From: Thermoproteota archaeon
GTDB lineage: Archaea; Korarchaeota; JAOZGF01; JAOZFZ01
Reading direction: 5' to 3'
Assembly (NCBI GenBank): GCA_027492035.1
Contig: JAOZFT010000014.1
Span: 1 to 11,697 of the forward strand
DNA length: 11,697 bases
The translations under genes and the position numbers were made by a program. The notes under the pieces were generated by a model. The model saw only the letters and a program-made list of their open reading frames with translations, did no database searches and was not told the DNA's origin. Each line of letters starts with the position of its first letter. Position 1 is the stretch's first letter. Positions 3,460-11,686 of this stretch are shown piece by piece.

Positions 3460-3614
3460 AATAGAATTAAAATTTCTAATATTTTTTAAATATTTAGAAT
3501 TTTTATTTCTTATAATTGGAAAGGAAAGAGAGAGACAGGGGAAAGGAAGAATGCTTTATTTTAATAAAAGAAAATTTTCTTTTTTAACTGGTTAAACTTT
3601 GCGGGGGAGAGGCG
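3460..3614. promoter_or_regulatory. Divergent promoter region between the ATPase and the aconitase X genes
   Basis: TTTAAA at 3485-3490 lies ~26-31 nt upstream of the ATPase start (leaderless-type spacing). TTTAATAA at ~3560-3567, perfect 18-bp palindrome at 3566-3583, TTTAAC-TG-GTTAAA at 3583-3596, and RBS-like GGGGAG before TTG 3615. Confidence 0.55.
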
Positions 3615-4832
3615 TTGTATTTAACGAAGGAGCAGGAAAAGATGTTGGATGGTGAAAGGGGGGAGGGTGTCAGGTTTGCAATGGAGGTTGTCACAAGGGT
3701 GGGGGACATATACGGCGCTGAGAAACTTGTTCAAATATCAAGTTCCCATGTGCTTGGCCATTACAGCTCCCTACATGATGCCGGGGTAGAGATGATGGAG
3801 AGGTTCACAGGTTCAAAGGCTTCATTCAGGGTCCCTACAACCGTTGACCCCATCAGCATTGAACCAGAAAGATGGAGGGACCTTAAGATTCAATCAAGCT
3901 ACGCTGAAAAACAAATGCGTTTAACCAATGCATTGATGGGTTTAGGAGTTATTCCAAGCTTTACATGTACCCCCTACGAGTGTTGCAATGTCCCTAGGCA
4001 CGGTGAAATTTTGGCTTGGTCTGAATCTTCAGCTGTAGCCTATGTGAATTCAATTGTAGGGGCAAAAACGAATAGGTTGACAGCTGGCCTGGATGTTTCA
4101 TGTGCAATCACCGGTTTAACCCCATACTTCGGTCTCTTAATACCTGAAAACAGGTTTGGCCAAGTTTTAATCGAAGTAAAGAAGAGGAAATTAGGGAACC
4201 TGCATTTCCACACGATCGGTTACATAATAGGTAAAACTGTTGGTAACAGGATTCCAGTGGTGACTGGTTTACCATTGGATGCAAAAAATTATCAGTTGAA
4301 GGGTTTAGCTTCAGCAGCTGCTTCAAGCGGTTCAGTTGCCCTTTTCCATGCAGTGGGTATATCTCCGGATGCCAGAAATGTGGATCAAGCCTTTGGACCA
4401 AATGAATTGGAGGATAAAATTGTGATAGATGAAAGTGGTATAAGGGAAGCTGAAGATGAAATAACTACTTCAAGGGAAAACCCAGATTTTGTAGCTATAG
4501 GTTGTCCACACTACTCCATCCCTGAATTGATTGAGTTAGCCCATATGGTTAAGGGTAAAAGGGTGAAAAGAAATGTTGAGTTTTGGGTTTACACCTCTAA
4601 ACACGTTGCAGCTTACATTCGAGAAATGGGGATCCTTCAAACAATAGAGGCTTCGGGGATAAGGGTTTTAACCTCTACATGCGCCGTTATTTCACCTATT
4701 AAGGAGTGGGGTTTTAAGGTGATGATGACGAACTCAGCTAAGTTTGCAAATGTTATACCTTCAGAGCATAAAATAGATGTTTACTATGCACCCCTAAAGG
4801 ATTTAATAGAATATGCAACCAAGGGGGAGTGA
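3615..4832 (+). CDS. acnX: Aconitase X catalytic (large) subunit, DUF521 family (phosphomevalonate dehydratase / cis-3-hydroxyproline dehydratase family), Fe-S protein
   Basis: 405 aa. Typical N-terminus MYLTKEQEKMLDGERGE, FTCTPY, AWSESSAV, NSIVGAKTNR, AITGLTPYFGL, AAASSGSVALFH, IGCPHYS, STCAV, TNSAK. The three candidate cluster-ligand Cys are present. Confidence 0.93.
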   Translation: MYLTKEQEKMLDGERGEGVRFAMEVVTRVGDIYGAEKLVQISSSHVLGHYSSLHDAGVEMMERFTGSKASFRVPTTVDPISIEPERWRDLKIQSSYAEKQMRLTNALMGLGVIPSFTCTPYECCNVPRHGEILAWSESSAVAYVNSIVGAKTNRLTAGLDVSCAITGLTPYFGLLIPENRFGQVLIEVKKRKLGNLHFHTIGYIIGKTVGNRIPVVTGLPLDAKNYQLKGLASAAASSGSVALFHAVGISPDARNVDQAFGPNELEDKIVIDESGIREAEDEITTSRENPDFVAIGCPHYSIPELIELAHMVKGKRVKRNVEFWVYTSKHVAAYIREMGILQTIEASGIRVLTSTCAVISPIKEWGFKVMMTNSAKFANVIPSEHKIDVYYAPLKDLIEYATKGE

Positions 4833-4833
4833 A

Positions 4834-5265
4834 GTGAAGGGGAAAGTAGTGATCAGGGGGAGGTGTATTGTTAAGGGGGAAGCTGTGGGAGAGGCCCTTG
4901 TAACTAAGCAGCCGTTCATGTTCCCCCATGGAATTAACCCTGAGACAGGGGAAATTATCGATAAAAGACATGAATTGTTTGGTTTGAATATGAAGGGGAA
5001 GATATTTATTTTCCCATATGGGAAGGGGTCAACAACCGGGTCCACATGGATACTGGAGACGATTAGATGTGGCAGTGCACCGGCTGCCATGGTTAACTTG
5101 GAAACAGAGCCTGTAATCGCAACAGGTGTTATCTTAGGCGAACTACTTTACGGTGTGAGGATACCTGTGATGGATCACCCTGACACTGACATCTTCCAAA
5201 AAATAGAGACAGGGGACCACGTGAAAATCGACGCGTACAAGGGAACAATTGAAGTGTATAAATAG
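4834..5265 (+). CDS. Aconitase X swivel (small) subunit, DUF126 family
   Basis: GRCIVKGEAVGEALVT, GINPETGEIID, GKIFIFPYGKGSTTGS (catalytic Ser motif), APAAMV, IETGDHVKID. The likely start is GTG 4834, just after the large-subunit TGA with GGGGAG upstream, rather than 4813. Confidence 0.92.
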   Translation: MKGKVVIRGRCIVKGEAVGEALVTKQPFMFPHGINPETGEIIDKRHELFGLNMKGKIFIFPYGKGSTTGSTWILETIRCGSAPAAMVNLETEPVIATGVILGELLYGVRIPVMDHPDTDIFQKIETGDHVKIDAYKGTIEVYK

Positions 5266-5281
5266 TTTATGCAGTAACAGG

Positions 5282-5307
5282 GAATCTTGAGGGAAGAGAA
5301 TTGAAAG
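5282..5307 (+). repeat. Solitary CRISPR-repeat-like sequence GAATCTTGAGGGAAGAGAATTGAAAG
   Basis: 21/26 identical to the reverse complement of the repeat at 11661-11686, with the last 14 nt identical including the ATTGAAAG handle. No neighbouring repeat at spacer distance. Confidence 0.75.
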
Positions 5308-5709
5308 TTGATTAAATTGATGGAAGTGGTAATGGAGAAGGTGCTGTATTTTATTGGCTATGTCACCGGGACTTATTGTTCCATGTTGGTGAATGAATTA
5401 ACACTTGAAAGGGTGGGGCATTACATTGGAGTATTCTACAAATTAGTGGGTTTGAAAATAAATAGGCCTAAAGTGAATGGTGAAGTAAGAATAACAACAA
5501 AGGAGGATTGTTGGTTCTACAGGTTTTTTAAGCCTCCCTATAAAGTGTGTAGGGCATTGTTTGGGTTTGACAGAGGTCTTGTACATGGACTCAGTAAAAA
5601 ACGCTTTGAACATTCCTTGATGAAAAGCCTAGCTTTAAATGCTGAATACTGTGAGTTTCATACAAGAAAGGTGAATCTAGAGGAGAAGGGTAACTACATT
5701 TTCCACTAA
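5308..5709 (+). CDS. Hypothetical protein with V4R / L-2-amino-thiazoline-4-carboxylic-acid-hydrolase-like Cys pattern, possibly N-terminally truncated
   Basis: Pattern 'CWFY...VCRALFGFDRGLVHGL...LMKSLALNAEYCEF' resembles the C...C..D..G...TLA.G...CEF signature of this fold. The ORF begins immediately after the solitary repeat, and the upstream in-frame stop lies inside the repeat. Confidence 0.55.
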   Translation: MIKLMEVVMEKVLYFIGYVTGTYCSMLVNELTLERVGHYIGVFYKLVGLKINRPKVNGEVRITTKEDCWFYRFFKPPYKVCRALFGFDRGLVHGLSKKRFEHSLMKSLALNAEYCEFHTRKVNLEEKGNYIFH

Positions 5710-5846
5710 CACTTTCTAAATGACTTAGTGTTAAAGATGTTTTTAATGTTCAGGAAGGAGGTAAACACCTTTTTAAGGGTTTTTCTTCTTGCGTAGAAAT
5801 CAGAGCTTCTACCATTCCTCTTTTACTTTACAAGCCCTTCTTAAAC

Positions 5847-6872
5847 TTATAACGGGGTAGTTCCTCTACTTATGAATGAGGAAGTAGAGTTTTTAGTTAG
5901 GAAATCTATTACTATTAAAGTGTTGTGCAGTTCGTAGAAGTTGCATCCGACGCAGTACCAACCTGTTTTACCCCTCTTTTTGCTCCAATGGTGGCAAAAT
6001 ACACTGTTTCCATAAAACTTTTTTATTGTAAAGTCTATGTTTCTGCAAGCTTCATTTAGATGCTTTTTCTCCCCTGTTGCTTTAAACAAGTCGAGAAGAG
6101 CCATGGTTGCAAGGGCTTGAATTGACAAGTATAGAATTTCCTCTTCCTCCTGGTTGATGCATCCATTCTTTCTCTTTAACTTGTCCAGGGAATATTTAAC
6201 TGTTTCTGTTCTTTCAATATATTCTGTGTTACTAGTAGACGTATAGGCTTTGCTAAGGGCTGAGAGAACTGTTAAGTTGGGGAGACCCACTAATTTGTCG
6301 TTACCCCTGGATTCACGGTAGTATTCTCCGTTAAAAAAACATTTTCTAGTTCACCGAGAATTTTCTTCCCTGTTGACAGATAAAATTTGTTGAGGGAGCT
6401 CTTGAGCCCTGAGCTGTACATGAAGCAACCAAGGGCAACTGTAGCTGAAACAACAGTTGAACCATAAAGAAGGGGAACATAGCCCATATAGTGACCTTCA
6501 CCTTCACTAAGAAATTAACGGATAGGTTGACAAGTTTATTTACGAAGGAGTAGAAATTTTTTCTTCCGATTTGATAGGCTTTAAACAATCCCAGGATGCC
6601 GAGGAAAGATTCCTTGAGAGTTTCTTGGTCGAAGATACCCTTAAGTGAGATTTTTATGCATCTGTTAACTGTTTCATAGGCCATCGCCAAGTGTTTCTTC
6701 TCAGCTAATCCCCTTTTCTCCATTTCGAAGAAGAGAACAGGTGCCCACGCTGTTACATCTCCAAAATGGTTACTCCATTCCCCATTGCCAAGGTAATGTT
6801 TCTTCATTCTGTTAAGTGTATCAGTTAATACTTTTTTTGTAGATGTTATTATTATGTTTTCACAGTGTTCAA
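5847..6872 (-). pseudogene. Six-hairpin glycosidase-like (alpha/alpha)6 protein (AGE-epimerase/GH76/YyaL-like helical repeats), frameshifted
   Basis: ORFs 6346-6807, 6290-6487 and 5847-6290 join through frameshifts at ~6510 (NFL>SEGEGHYMGYVP) and at the A7 tract 6333-6339 (ENVF>FNGEYYRESRGNDKLVGLPN). Repeated helical motifs 'GLFKAYQ', 'ALSKAYTSTSNTEYIER', 'ALLDLFKATGEKKHLNEA'. The frame is open ~80 nt upstream of ATG 6807, with a possible original TTG at 6872 after AGGGGG. Confidence 0.65.
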
Positions 6873-9158: not shown

Positions 9159-9620
9159 GTGATTCTTTTGAGTGATACAGGTAAACTGTCTAAAGCTGTT
9201 AAACAACTTGTTAGAGAGCTTGGTGACAGAGTTGTAGCTGTATCATTGTTTGGTAGTCAGGCGAGGGGGGAGGTTACAAGTCGAAGCGACTATGACTTCT
9301 TCGTGGTTGTTAAGGATCTAAAAGAGGGGAATAGAAGGTTTAAAATCTATGATCCCCTCTATAAAGTGTTAAAAAGAGATGTTACAGTCATAGATATGGA
9401 TGAAGACTCTCTTTTTAGGGAAGACCTCACCATAAATTCTCTACTACTGAACATAGCTTGGGATAGCATAGTGCTTTATGACCCGGAAGGGAAACTAAGA
9501 AACCTTTTTAAACGAATTAAAAATGCCGTGGAGAAGAGCGGGTTAAAAAGATATAGAACAAAAAATGGAAAGTATGGTTGGAAACCTGTGAAGGGGAAGC
9601 TAAAAACAATAGAGGTATAA
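9159..9620 (+). CDS. Minimal nucleotidyltransferase (MNT, Pol-beta superfamily), antitoxin-type partner of HEPN
   Basis: 'VSLFGSQARGEVTSRSDYDFFVV' matches the GS-x10-DxD motif, followed by RDVTVI and IVLYD. The start is GTG 9159 or TTG 9168. Confidence 0.92.
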   Translation: MILLSDTGKLSKAVKQLVRELGDRVVAVSLFGSQARGEVTSRSDYDFFVVVKDLKEGNRRFKIYDPLYKVLKRDVTVIDMDEDSLFREDLTINSLLLNIAWDSIVLYDPEGKLRNLFKRIKNAVEKSGLKRYRTKNGKYGWKPVKGKLKTIEV

Positions 9621-9622
9621 AC

Positions 9623-10048
9623 TTGAAGATAAACCCTGAAAGTGAAGTAAAATATAGGGTTAAGCTGGCAAAGGGGTATTTAGAAAAAGCCGAGAAATTT
9701 TACGCCACAGAAGACTATAAAGAATCTGTGGAGGCCTCTCAACTGGCAGTGGAAAACGCTGCAAAAGCCGTTATAGCTGTGGCTAGGATTCCAAGCTGGA
9801 GCCATGATCCTTCAAGTGAACTTCTGGAAATAATGGATAAGTTACCTAAAAACAAATGGAAAATGATTGAAGAGTTAGCCAAGCTGGTGCATGAACTTGC
9901 ACCTGAGCATGGATTAACGACGTATGGTAAACCCTCAGAAGGACTGACCCCATGGGAAATATATGATAAAGGGAAGGCCCTAGAAGCTTTAAAGAAATCC
10001 AGGAAAGCTCTTCAATTAACTAGAAAAATACTTCATGGAGGAAACTGA
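9623..10048 (+). CDS. HEPN domain protein of an MNT-HEPN pair
   Basis: 'LAKGYLEKAE...SQLAVENAAKAVI...WSHD...TTYG...IYDKGKALEAL' fits the archaeal HEPN (PF05168-type) pattern. The likely start is TTG 9623 after GAGGT (9612-9616), directly behind the MNT stop. Confidence 0.9.
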   Translation: MKINPESEVKYRVKLAKGYLEKAEKFYATEDYKESVEASQLAVENAAKAVIAVARIPSWSHDPSSELLEIMDKLPKNKWKMIEELAKLVHELAPEHGLTTYGKPSEGLTPWEIYDKGKALEALKKSRKALQLTRKILHGGN

Positions 10049-10454: not shown

Positions 10455-10727
10455 TTGGAAGTAGTAAAATCGAGGTTCTTGATTCCATAGCAAGTGAAAC
10501 CAGGGCTTGCAGGAGGTGTGGTCTCTGGGAGAAAAGGGAAAAAAGCTGTTCCCGGTGAGGGAAGCATAGATGCCCAAATAATGTTTATAAGTGAGGCTCT
10601 AGGTGTAAATGAAGACATACGGGGAAGACCGTTTGTAGGGGCTGCCGGTAAACTTCTGGATAAACTGATAAACGATGTATTGAGACTTGAAAAAGGAGAG
10701 GTTTACATAACAAATGTTGTGAAATGT
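10455..10727 (+). pseudogene. udg: Family-4 uracil-DNA glycosylase, frameshifted and C-terminally truncated
   Basis: 'KIEVLDSIASETRACRRCGLWEKR' (CxxC at 10508-10519), +1 frameshift at ~10536, then 'KAVPGEGSIDAQIMFISEALGVNEDIRGRPFVGAAGKLLD...VYITNVVKC'. Canonical GEAPG is mutated to SEALG, and homology stops where RPP should follow. Confidence 0.9.
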
Positions 10728-10760
10728 TCTTTTTCATGGCGACAAACTTCACGTTCACCG

Positions 10761-11525
10761 TTAAATCTCTCTCCTCTTTGCACTTGAAAGGTAGCCTATA
10801 GTCCTGTAAACTTGGCTTAGAGTTACTCCTCCCCTTATCTTAAACGTTCTAACAATATCCTTGTAAATTGTAAGGTTCAAGTACGTTTTGAGGCTTTCAG
10901 CAGCTAAGTATAAATCATCCGTCTTAACAACCTCAGGATAACCACCCCCCAACAAATAATCATGCAGTAAAAGTGTTATGCGGTCTATATCCCCTGCCAA
11001 GTTGTTTGCTTTCTCTCTCAAAGTCGAATAAAAAACATTCGAATTATTTTTCTGTATTGATTTTTTCAACGCTTTCCTAAGATCAATTAACTCTATCAAG
11101 TTTTCTCTCAAAATCTTTCTTTTCCATATGAAAACGAATTGTTTCAAGAAATTTCATTGGAAACACTATTTGAAGAAGCATTAGTCCTACAAGTGCCTCT
11201 GCCCCACCTGTTAAAACGTTTACGCTTGAAGATCCCGAAACAATAAACTTCACCTTATAGCTCAGGTCAAACTATCTTTTCAGAACAAGCTCCCAGCCCT
11301 TTAGAGTCTGAACCTCATCTAAGAAAACATATACCTTTCCGTAACATCCGAAAATCACAGTTTAAGAATGTACTTTGAATAGAGGTCGAAAAATTTATAT
11401 CATTAAAAAGCTGCTCAGGAGAAGAATCTCACCATAAAAACTTGTCCCTTACAATGGCTGTGTTAGCTAATAACTTGACCAATGTAACGGTCAAAAAAGT
11501 CATTACTGAGCAACTGAGAAAGCAC
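10761..11525 (-). pseudogene. Second AAA_14-type ATPase, decayed
   Basis: From 11340 the - strand reads GKVYVFLDEVQTLKGWELVLKR*FDLSYKVKFIVSGSSS...EALVG...FPMKFLE (TAG at 11272-11274). A frameshift at ~11087 leads to YLLGGGYPEVV...TIYKDIVRTFKIR. 'FDLYSKYILK' lies near 11395-11360 and a possible relic N-terminus at 11525-11450. Walker A and DUF4143 are missing, and the 5' boundary is uncertain. Confidence 0.85.
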
Positions 11526-11600: not shown

Positions 11601-11686
11601 CTTTCAATTCTCTTTCCTGAAACTCCTTTTCATATTTCAAATTTGCTTGATATTACTTACCTTTCAATTCTCTTTCTGTGAGATTC
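11601..11686 (-). CRISPR. Trailer end of a CRISPR array or a mini-array: two repeats and one 35-nt spacer, possibly continuing beyond the window
   Basis: CTTTCAATTCTCTTTC occurs at 11601 and 11661 (60-nt period). On the - strand the repeats are GAATCTCACAGAAAGAGAATTGAAAG (11661-11686) and degenerate GAGTTTCAGGAAAGAGAATTGAAAG (11601-11625). The GAATCTC...ATTGAAAG form resembles short repeats known from Thermoproteota, and the degenerate copy is at the expected trailer end. Confidence 0.75.

Follow-up and report, generated by a model that had tools for sequence, protein, structure and literature searches.

Why should a lone copy of a CRISPR repeat stand between two protein-coding genes on an archaeal chromosome, on the strand from which both genes are read? 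We examined this question in a stretch of 11,697 nucleotides from a Thermoproteota archaeon (the window, contig C3), together with the 1.87-Mb assembly from which it comes (G000) and the one close relative of that genome (G001). An earlier note on the window had described a solitary repeat in sense orientation 16 nt past the stop codon of the aconitase X (acnX) operon, identical to the array repeat in 21 of 26 letters, among them all of the 3′ 14 nt, and both the sequence and shuffling bear this description out. The note had further proposed that read-through from acnX would turn the repeat into a substrate for Cas6, from which either a processed messenger or a guide-like RNA might arise. Our best reading keeps the first of these ideas and leaves the second: the repeat would be a Cas6 site within an mRNA, not a guide-RNA gene, with a cut that is either used for regulation or merely tolerated.

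The repeat unit between acnX and orf133

The solitary repeat unit (SRU) reads GAATCTTGAGGGAAGAGAATTGAAAG on the forward strand. It follows the TAG stop codon of the acnX small-subunit gene (5263-5265) on the same strand, and its mismatches to the repeat at the contig end are confined to repeat positions 7-10 and 12. Within the window, the 3′ 14-mer occurs three times with at most one mismatch, against a mean of 0.03 over 200 shuffles, none of which (0/200) reached three; the exact 14-mer is found four times in the whole 1.87-Mb assembly. Scanning the assembly with the 26-mer at up to seven mismatches returned 18 places, namely the array repeat itself without a mismatch, a C37 copy with three, the SRU with five and 15 places with seven; none had 1, 2, 4 or 6. 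At 21/26 or better, 0.043 places per genome and 2.7e-4 per window are to be expected under an i.i.d. model, an estimate that is about four-fold optimistic, as 15 places were observed at 19/26 against 3.7 expected. The AT- and purine-rich composition of the genome and those 15 places at 19/26 speak for a chance resemblance in purine-rich intergenic DNA. Against it, the expectation at 21/26 is only ~0.04 to 0.2 places per genome, the six nucleotides upstream are common to the SRU and its paralogues, and the nearest paralogue, a unit on contig C181 of the relative, differs at just 1 of 26 positions. Chance is thereby effectively refuted.

No second repeat was found within ~180 nt upstream or ~190 nt downstream (5101-5500, both strands), where the best other match reaches 14-15/26; the SRU is therefore a single unit and not a mini-array. 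An array comprises at least two regularly spaced repeats with unique spacers, of which the locus holds a single repeat, barring assembly collapse. Conversely, the SRU resembles the array repeat of its own genome, lies outside the array and in or beside a CRISPR-cas locus, and lacks a second repeat, as is characteristic of solitary repeats. By the 16-bp BLASTN criterion quoted by Shmakov et al. (10.1101/2023.03.03.530964), it is borderline against the array, with 15/16. Taken as a whole, 5282-5307 is a genuine solitary CRISPR repeat unit.

A lone repeat could also be what is left in an assembly of a real array between acnX and orf133. Both genomes are fragmented drafts (42 and ~220 contigs), most assembly k-mers exceed a 26-nt repeat in length, an array whose spacers vary can collapse, and the known array does break a contig. 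Such a collapse is nonetheless quite unlikely: the junctions are identical in two separate assemblies, each solitary copy carries its own central variant that is found nowhere else in the assemblies, no leader is present, and orf133 would have to start 12 nt after the terminal repeat.

Table 1. Features of the window at the solitary repeat unit and at the contig end.
Feature	Position	Strand	Evidence and remarks
Aconitase X large subunit gene	3615..4832	+	PF04412, E 1.4e-139
Aconitase X small (swivel) subunit gene	4813..5265	+	PF01989, E 5.9e-26; 20-nt overlap with the large-subunit gene
Possible archaeal TATA box TATAAATA	5255..5262	+	Overlaps the acnX small-subunit stop; equivalent in G001 TATAAAAA
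Leader-end remnant AACAGG	5276..5281	+	Consensus ACTTAAAACAAG directly precedes most family members; full A-rich leader absent at this copy
SRU, 26 nt	5282..5307	+	21/26 against the array repeat; 25/26 against the C181 unit of G001
Equivalent of the 8-nt crRNA 5′ handle, ATTGAAAG	5300..5307	+	Predicted Cas6 cut 5299/5300
orf133, lineage-specific protein gene	5320..5709	+	Codon-position pattern against G001; in-frame TTG at 5308 a possible start
Degenerate terminal repeat, trailer end	11601..11626	-	19/26; genome scan
Spacer, 34 nt	11627..11660	-	26-nt core without a match in viral contigs
Canonical CRISPR repeat GAATCTCACAGAAAGAGAATTGAAAG	11661..11686 (read 11686-11661)	-	Direct reading and genome scan

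The SRU lies on the coding strand within the 54-nt gap that separates the acnX small-subunit gene from orf133, and the ATG of orf133 follows 12 nt after it. Of the 23 substitutions that separate the relative from the source genome in 5308-5709, codon position 3 accounts for 14, position 1 for 4 and position 2 for 5, a position-3 excess of roughly 2.8 s.d. above one third; judged by this pattern, orf133 is a real gene under codon constraint. In a database of 5.8e9 proteins, orf133 retrieved its own cluster alone (1/1 candidates), and neither Pfam (E up to 5) nor NCBIfam gave a match. Atlas offers weak leads, namely a 'regulator' cluster at 0.91 and another cluster, at 0.89, with V4R in 33% of its members; the cysteines of orf133 may follow a V4R-like pattern. 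A second acnX pair resides on contig C9 of the source genome with identities of 32% and 47%, which makes the copy in the window an extra paralogue.

A CRISPR-Cas island around the unit

The reading of the SRU as a Cas6 substrate presupposes a cas6 gene in the genome, and one is present at G000:C37:1305-2189 (PF10040, E 2.9e-15; PADLOC Cas6, E 5e-22). The Cas6 profile PF01881 remained silent in G000, G001, G002 and G031, a false negative, as this model also misses the Sulfolobus control while PF10040 and PADLOC detect the gene on C37. The same contig carries a type III-D effector set at C37:10062-18544, composed of Cas10, four Csm3-like RAMPs, Cas5_IIID and Csm2_IIID, as well as a cas2 gene cut by the contig start, an HTH-CARF gene, a PIN gene, Csx1, Csx3 and a CARF/PD-DExK gene. 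Its Cas4 is apparently split. PF01867 gave no match for cas1 in the profile search of the source genome; the operon of the relative continues in the order cas2-csa1-cas1 and C37 begins inside cas2, and cas1 of the source genome probably lies beyond the end of C37.

The last 127 nt of C37 are 100% identical to the first 127 nt of the window contig C3, so that the two are neighbours in the assembly graph, an adjacency given by overlap and not by reads. On the layout inferred from this overlap, cas2, the CARF regulator, cas6, Csx1, Csx3 and the type III-D genes on C37, followed by the window with the array at its end, would form an island of ~32 kb. The SRU would then be separated by ~7.5 kb from the preceding effector operon, by ~24 kb from cas6 and by 6.3 kb from the array that follows. 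Elsewhere the window encodes an AAA_14/DUF4143 ATPase, a TrmB-type regulator, an MNT/HEPN pair and several ORFs without a match; a truncated family-4 UDG is found at 10494-10787.

What can be seen of the array is minimal: a complete repeat, a spacer of 34 nt and a degenerate terminal repeat, with just 11 nt of contig left upstream of the complete repeat. An exact-match scan of viral contigs found no match for the 26-nt core of the spacer. The repeat length of 26 nt is supported by a true array in a metagenome (locus L032), which has a near-identical 26-nt repeat and a 39-nt spacer, and G031, a genome of the same phylum, builds its arrays of a 24-nt version. The centres of these array repeats differ, reading CACA in the source genome, CATT in L032 and CA in G031.

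A dispersed family of single-repeat units

The earlier note had held that a lack of the motif in close relatives would count against its proposal. The SRU is present unchanged in the relative (0 of 26 positions differ), with 3/19 differences in 5263-5281 on one side and 3/38 in 5308-5345 on the other. In 5263-5281, the relative has lost the stop codon of the acnX small-subunit gene and gained a new one 9 nt downstream. The locally low divergence of the SRU against its flanks is only a hint; zero changes in 26 nt are expected about one third of the time at the block-wide divergence of 4%. Conservation in this relative is in fact nearly uninformative, because the whole 2.4-kb block (window 3553-5989) is 96% identical, with 98 differences in 2437 positions. 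Elsewhere the two genomes share ~72-75% identity where alignable; the exceptions at 95-96% are window 3550-5989 and C37:1-2036, the latter with the other solitary unit. Since the flanks of the acnX block also differ between the two genomes, both the acnX block and the cas module give the impression of a recent transfer or of mis-binning.

Units of the same kind are scattered over both genomes. The family pattern GAATCT-N4-GAAAGAGAATTGAAAG, with at most three mismatches, occurs at four places in the source genome (the SRU, C37:352-377 and two array repeats, that is, two solitary and two in the array) and at nine solitary places on nine contigs in the relative. It has no match in G002, and a reversed-pattern control gave none in G000, G001 or G002. 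A tighter pattern found six loci in a collection of 185,579 species, five of them known sites of the relative and one an isolated Clostridiales record that we take as chance. Scanning metagenomes returned L032 and one further locus, L031, an isolated hit in DNA of 50% GC that we likewise ascribe to chance, and an exact-match scan of viral contigs with the SRU pattern returned nothing. Most family units share the motif ACTTAAAACAAG directly upstream, together with A-rich, leader-like DNA. The SRU thus belongs to a small, lineage-restricted dispersed family in a Thermoproteota lineage.

After two orthologues in the relative were dropped, nine distinct solitary loci remained for family statistics. 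Non-consensus letters make up 11/198 (5.6%) of the repeat arms, 13/36 (36%) of the central 4 nt and 37/126 (29%) of the 14 nt upstream. All positions that are invariant in true arrays (the source genome, G031 and L032) are kept at the SRU except position 12, where A is changed to G. The central 4 nt vary in every family member and also among the true arrays of related organisms; the mismatches of the SRU are therefore a subfamily signature rather than decay on site, and the single difference from the C181 unit indicates that the pattern was inherited and not acquired at 5282-5307. This weakens the suggestion that mismatches sparing the handle side betray selection.

Two of the nine loci end 2-14 nt before a start codon on the same strand, that of orf133 and that of a UbiA-family gene on contig C34 of the relative. 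Five point toward a convergent gene, with the stop of that gene 1-156 nt downstream, among them the CARF gene beside cas2, and two have no close gene at all. An orientation bias toward convergent genes was considered and discarded, as 5/9 equals the expectation for random insertion. In the relative, family units adjoin thiamine, ubiA and methanofuran-type genes. The orthologous region upstream of ubiA holds an intact unit in the relative and only a vestige of one in the source genome, so that some family members evidently decay; a second, more distal similarity to the unit upstream of ubiA in the source genome is marginal, with 23/1000 shuffles scoring as well.

Such decay fits an explanation in which the SRU is a neutral relic, left over from array decay or from the spread of leader-repeat fragments inside the CRISPR island, that hitch-hiked with the acnX-orf133 block, any cutting by Cas6 being incidental. 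The A-rich leader is missing at 5282-5307, the 96% identical block has left no time for decay, and the surroundings are a variable island with gene fragments such as the truncated UDG and the split Cas4. Shmakov et al. (10.1101/2023.03.03.530964) judged repeat-like elements flanking type III loci as likely non-functional. What uniform decay would not give is the pattern over the nine loci, in which the arms are ~5-6 times better conserved than the centre and the leader end, although this arm/centre contrast could reflect differences that already existed among the parent arrays. We regard a relic as a serious possibility, nearly as likely as the Cas6 site that we favor.

The shared upstream DNA raises the alternative that the family acts as DNA and not as a Cas6 site in RNA, either as a portable promoter/5′-UTR cassette or as an integration site for Cas1-Cas2, a proto-array. 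Most members carry the TATA-like ACTTAAAACAAG at a fixed distance from the repeat together with the leader-like DNA; the C34 unit replaces the Shine-Dalgarno-bearing upstream region that ubiA has in the source genome; and the C37 copy sits beside cas2 (cas2-csa1-cas1 in the relative), at a place where one would look for an array. The copy at 5282-5307, however, has kept AACAGG alone of its leader, the five loci that face a convergent gene have no gene to drive, and no expanded array with variant repeats is seen in the assemblies. We consider a role at the DNA level unlikely.

A possible Cas6 site in the acnX-orf133 transcript

The explanation that we favor, tentatively and by analogy with ncRNA60 of Saccharolobus solfataricus, is that the SRU is a Cas6-cleavable site in the acnX-orf133 transcript. 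Transcripts starting from acnX, or from the TATA-like element at 5255-5262, would run into orf133 and carry the repeat as RNA. If the latter element is used, transcription would begin near 5283-5286, where the SRU itself begins. The arms, which are conserved (GAATCT ... GRAAGAGAATTGAAAG), would be recognized by the host Cas6, and cleavage would fall 8 nt short of the 3′ end of the repeat, a position predicted from the general behavior of Cas6 and from PMC4041471. Cutting there would leave the acnX message on one side and, on the other, an orf133 message that opens with the 8-nt handle followed by 12 nt up to the AUG, and the handle-tagged 5′ end might be picked up by type III-D subunits, as seen for ncRNA60. 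The read-through envisaged in the earlier note is plausible in this respect: cas6 is present, the strand is right, and 5266-5281, from the acnX stop to the SRU, contains no oligo-T run (at most TTT).

The repeat RNAs are near-unstructured (-1.5 to -3.5 kcal/mol, z -0.8 to +0.25), and a TCTC/GAGA hairpin within the repeat was rejected because shuffled sequences fold at least as well. Cas6 would thus have to recognize the repeat by its sequence, which is retained. Rfam gave no match in the window at E up to 1. Weighing against a Cas6 site are the distance of ~24 kb from cas6, which is not adjacent, the change at arm position 12, the uninformative conservation in the relative, the decayed ubiA unit of the source genome and the draft state of both genomes.

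The closest known counterpart is ncRNA60, a single repeat-like motif near cas6-3 that is cut in vitro by Cas6-3 at the crRNA site, which leaves a crRNA-like 5′ handle; its product makes up ~1.5% of the reads of the CSM complex, where it is abundant, and its function is given as unknown (Sokolowski et al., 2014; PMC4041471). The two cases have in common a crenarchaeal-type host, a Csm-type (type III) complex and a lone motif outside an array in a cas neighborhood, and the source genome likewise combines a cognate cas6 with a type III effector. ncRNA60 is a separate non-coding RNA adjoining cas6-3, whereas the SRU lies between protein genes, with a start codon 12 nt downstream and cas6 ~24 kb away.

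A cut by Cas6 would also yield a handle-bearing RNA, and the earlier note had considered that the repeat and 5308-5345 might form a crRNA-like RNA that guides an effector to a partly complementary host target, or one that titrates Cas proteins. A T-rich run, TATTTTATT, sets in ~40 nt past the repeat, and solitary repeat units and mini-arrays with such roles have been described. The would-be guide found no support: 5308-5345 consists of the 12-nt gap and the start of orf133, and no distal repeat follows within 5101-5500. The best matches of 5300-5350 in the source genome are 14 nt long (E 0.22 or worse), with none of at least 11 nt on C37. An exact-match scan of viral contigs found no match for 5308-5331. 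No type I Cas7 (PF01905) or Cas5 (PF09704) was detected in G000 or G001 with models that are poorly sensitive, being silent on the Sulfolobus control as well. CreA/CreR mini-CRISPRs, whose degenerate CRISPR-derived repeats give crRNA-like RNAs with host-directed roles, are described as a pair of repeat-like units around a spacer that has a partial match, beside a PAM, in a cas or toxin promoter, and as working with type I or V effectors that bind DNA (10.1101/2023.03.10.532045, PMC10097628); none of these features was found for the SRU. Racr RNA anti-CRISPRs, also solitary repeat units, imitate the repeat of the host and are reported to be encoded by viruses or other mobile elements (PMC10651486). 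The SRU is chromosomal, with no viral or integrase families among the window ORFs and no counterpart in viral contigs, though the 96% block common to both genomes suggests mobility of some kind. Both a regulatory guide and an RNA anti-CRISPR are very unlikely.

According to Shmakov et al. (10.1101/2023.03.03.530964), standalone repeats, single repeat units and mini-arrays are widespread, and type III elements near arrays or in flanks, lacking conservation or targets, are probably degraded and non-functional. These elements are like the SRU in being repeat-like, outside an array, in or beside a CRISPR-cas locus and without a detectable distal repeat. Most of them sit in type I or V-A loci, with cas promoters as their targets, and, unlike them, the SRU family is dispersed over the chromosome (nine contigs in the relative), shares a leader-end motif and has two members that abut start codons.

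Beyond a Cas6 site at one locus, the dispersed units could together constitute a domesticated control of host genes by Cas6 and the type III-D effector, with sense and antisense modes, a long shot in our estimation. At the sense units (acnX/orf133, and ubiA in the relative), the mRNA, once cut by Cas6, would carry a crRNA handle at its 5′ end, just a few nucleotides ahead of the start codon, and effector subunits could assemble over the ribosome-loading region, tying expression to the abundance of CRISPR-Cas. At the five antisense loci, the crRNA would be perfectly complementary to the convergent mRNA, with the handle paired too; since the mRNA flank would pair with the handle, the outcome would be slicing without Cas10 signalling.

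Lone CRISPR repeats are already known, chiefly for regulating cas genes or serving viruses as decoys, and the SRU is not a new system. Should it be a relic, the finding is ordinary. Our limited search of the open-access literature found no description of a Cas6 site between the cistrons of a host operon or of dispersed leader-plus-single-repeat units.

Engineered Csy4/Cas6 sites insulate cistrons in synthetic operons, where polycistronic RNA is cut into messages that behave separately. These insulators are synthetic and placed between two ORFs; if Cas6 cuts the SRU, it would be their natural counterpart, a CRISPR processing site inside an ordinary operon that links the expression of a metabolic gene, or of a gene of unknown function, to the state of the immune system. 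The dispersed family is more unusual than the copy at 5282-5307 itself. Spread over the chromosome, with nine units in the relative and two units at start codons, it bears on how arrays are born, collapse and are co-opted.

Blocks of high identity shared by the two genomes

The assembly under study (G000) and its close relative (G001) share only two blocks at 95-96% identity, located at 3550-5989 of the window and at 1-2036 of L040, the G000 contig C37 that carries cas6 and type III-D genes, and each of the two blocks contains one solitary repeat. The remaining alignable DNA of the two genomes is approximately 72-75% identical. Because the two repeat-bearing blocks stand so far above this level, the sequence comparison suggests that parts of the CRISPR island were transferred recently or, alternatively, that contigs were mis-binned.

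Other genes of the window and the CRISPR island

As another aconitase X pair is encoded on contig C9 of G000, the pair in the window is an additional paralogue. The NCBIfam model nearest to the window pair is cis-3-hydroxy-L-proline dehydratase, but the score of 287 bits lies far below the 700-bit cut-off. The MntA-like/HEPN pair constitutes a toxin-antitoxin-type module. The uracil-DNA glycosylase-like ORF is probably a gene fragment, covering only positions 20-84 of the 184-position family-4 model. On L040, the two Cas4 ORFs match the N- and C-terminal halves of Cas4 models. The Cas6 of this lineage is detected by PF10040 and the PADLOC models, while PF01881 (Cas_Cas6_C) is blind to it and to the Sulfolobus control alike; the control was also silent with PF01905 and PF09704.

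Coordinates of the genes and repeats discussed in this part
Feature	Location	Remarks
Cas4, seemingly split into two ORFs	L040 3654-3998 and 4018-4305	different frames
Family-4 uracil-DNA glycosylase-like ORF, 97 aa	window 10494-10787	
Overlapping nucleotidyltransferase (MntA-like) and HEPN pair	window 9159-10048	between acnX and the array
Second aconitase X pair, distantly related	G000:C9:22515-23960	subunits 32% and 47% identical to those of the window
Second solitary repeat	G000:C37 (L040) 352-377	preceded by a 115-nt A-rich leader; leader and repeat, 238-377
Solitary repeat with a leader	L029 (G001 C34) 2078-2103	a UbiA-family prenyltransferase gene starts 2-14 nt past its end
Array end, near-identical 26-nt repeat	L032 (metagenome contig) 25-115	
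Two-repeat mini-array	L032 1050-1142	~0.9 kb beyond the array end

Repeats outside the window

In the mini-array of the metagenome contig, the first repeat is degenerate on its 5' side. A k-mer scan also returned a dense short-period direct repeat at G000:C18:2044-2352, probably a repetitive coding region.

Upstream of the ubiA-family gene, the Shine-Dalgarno-bearing region of G000 (C21, ~137,750-137,950) is replaced in G001 by the leader and solitary repeat, of which G000 retains just a vestige similar to the end of the leader.

On C37, the solitary repeat has the cas2 start on one side and the stop of an HTH-CARF gene on the other; the HTH-CARF gene is encoded on the opposite strand and ends 8 nt past the repeat. 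The same arrangement of leader, solitary repeat, cas2, and HTH-CARF gene is found in G001 (contig C40, L030). Adjoining cas2-csa1-cas1, this site is the expected place for an array, and a crRNA-like transcript from the repeat would run antisense to the CARF mRNA at its 3' end.
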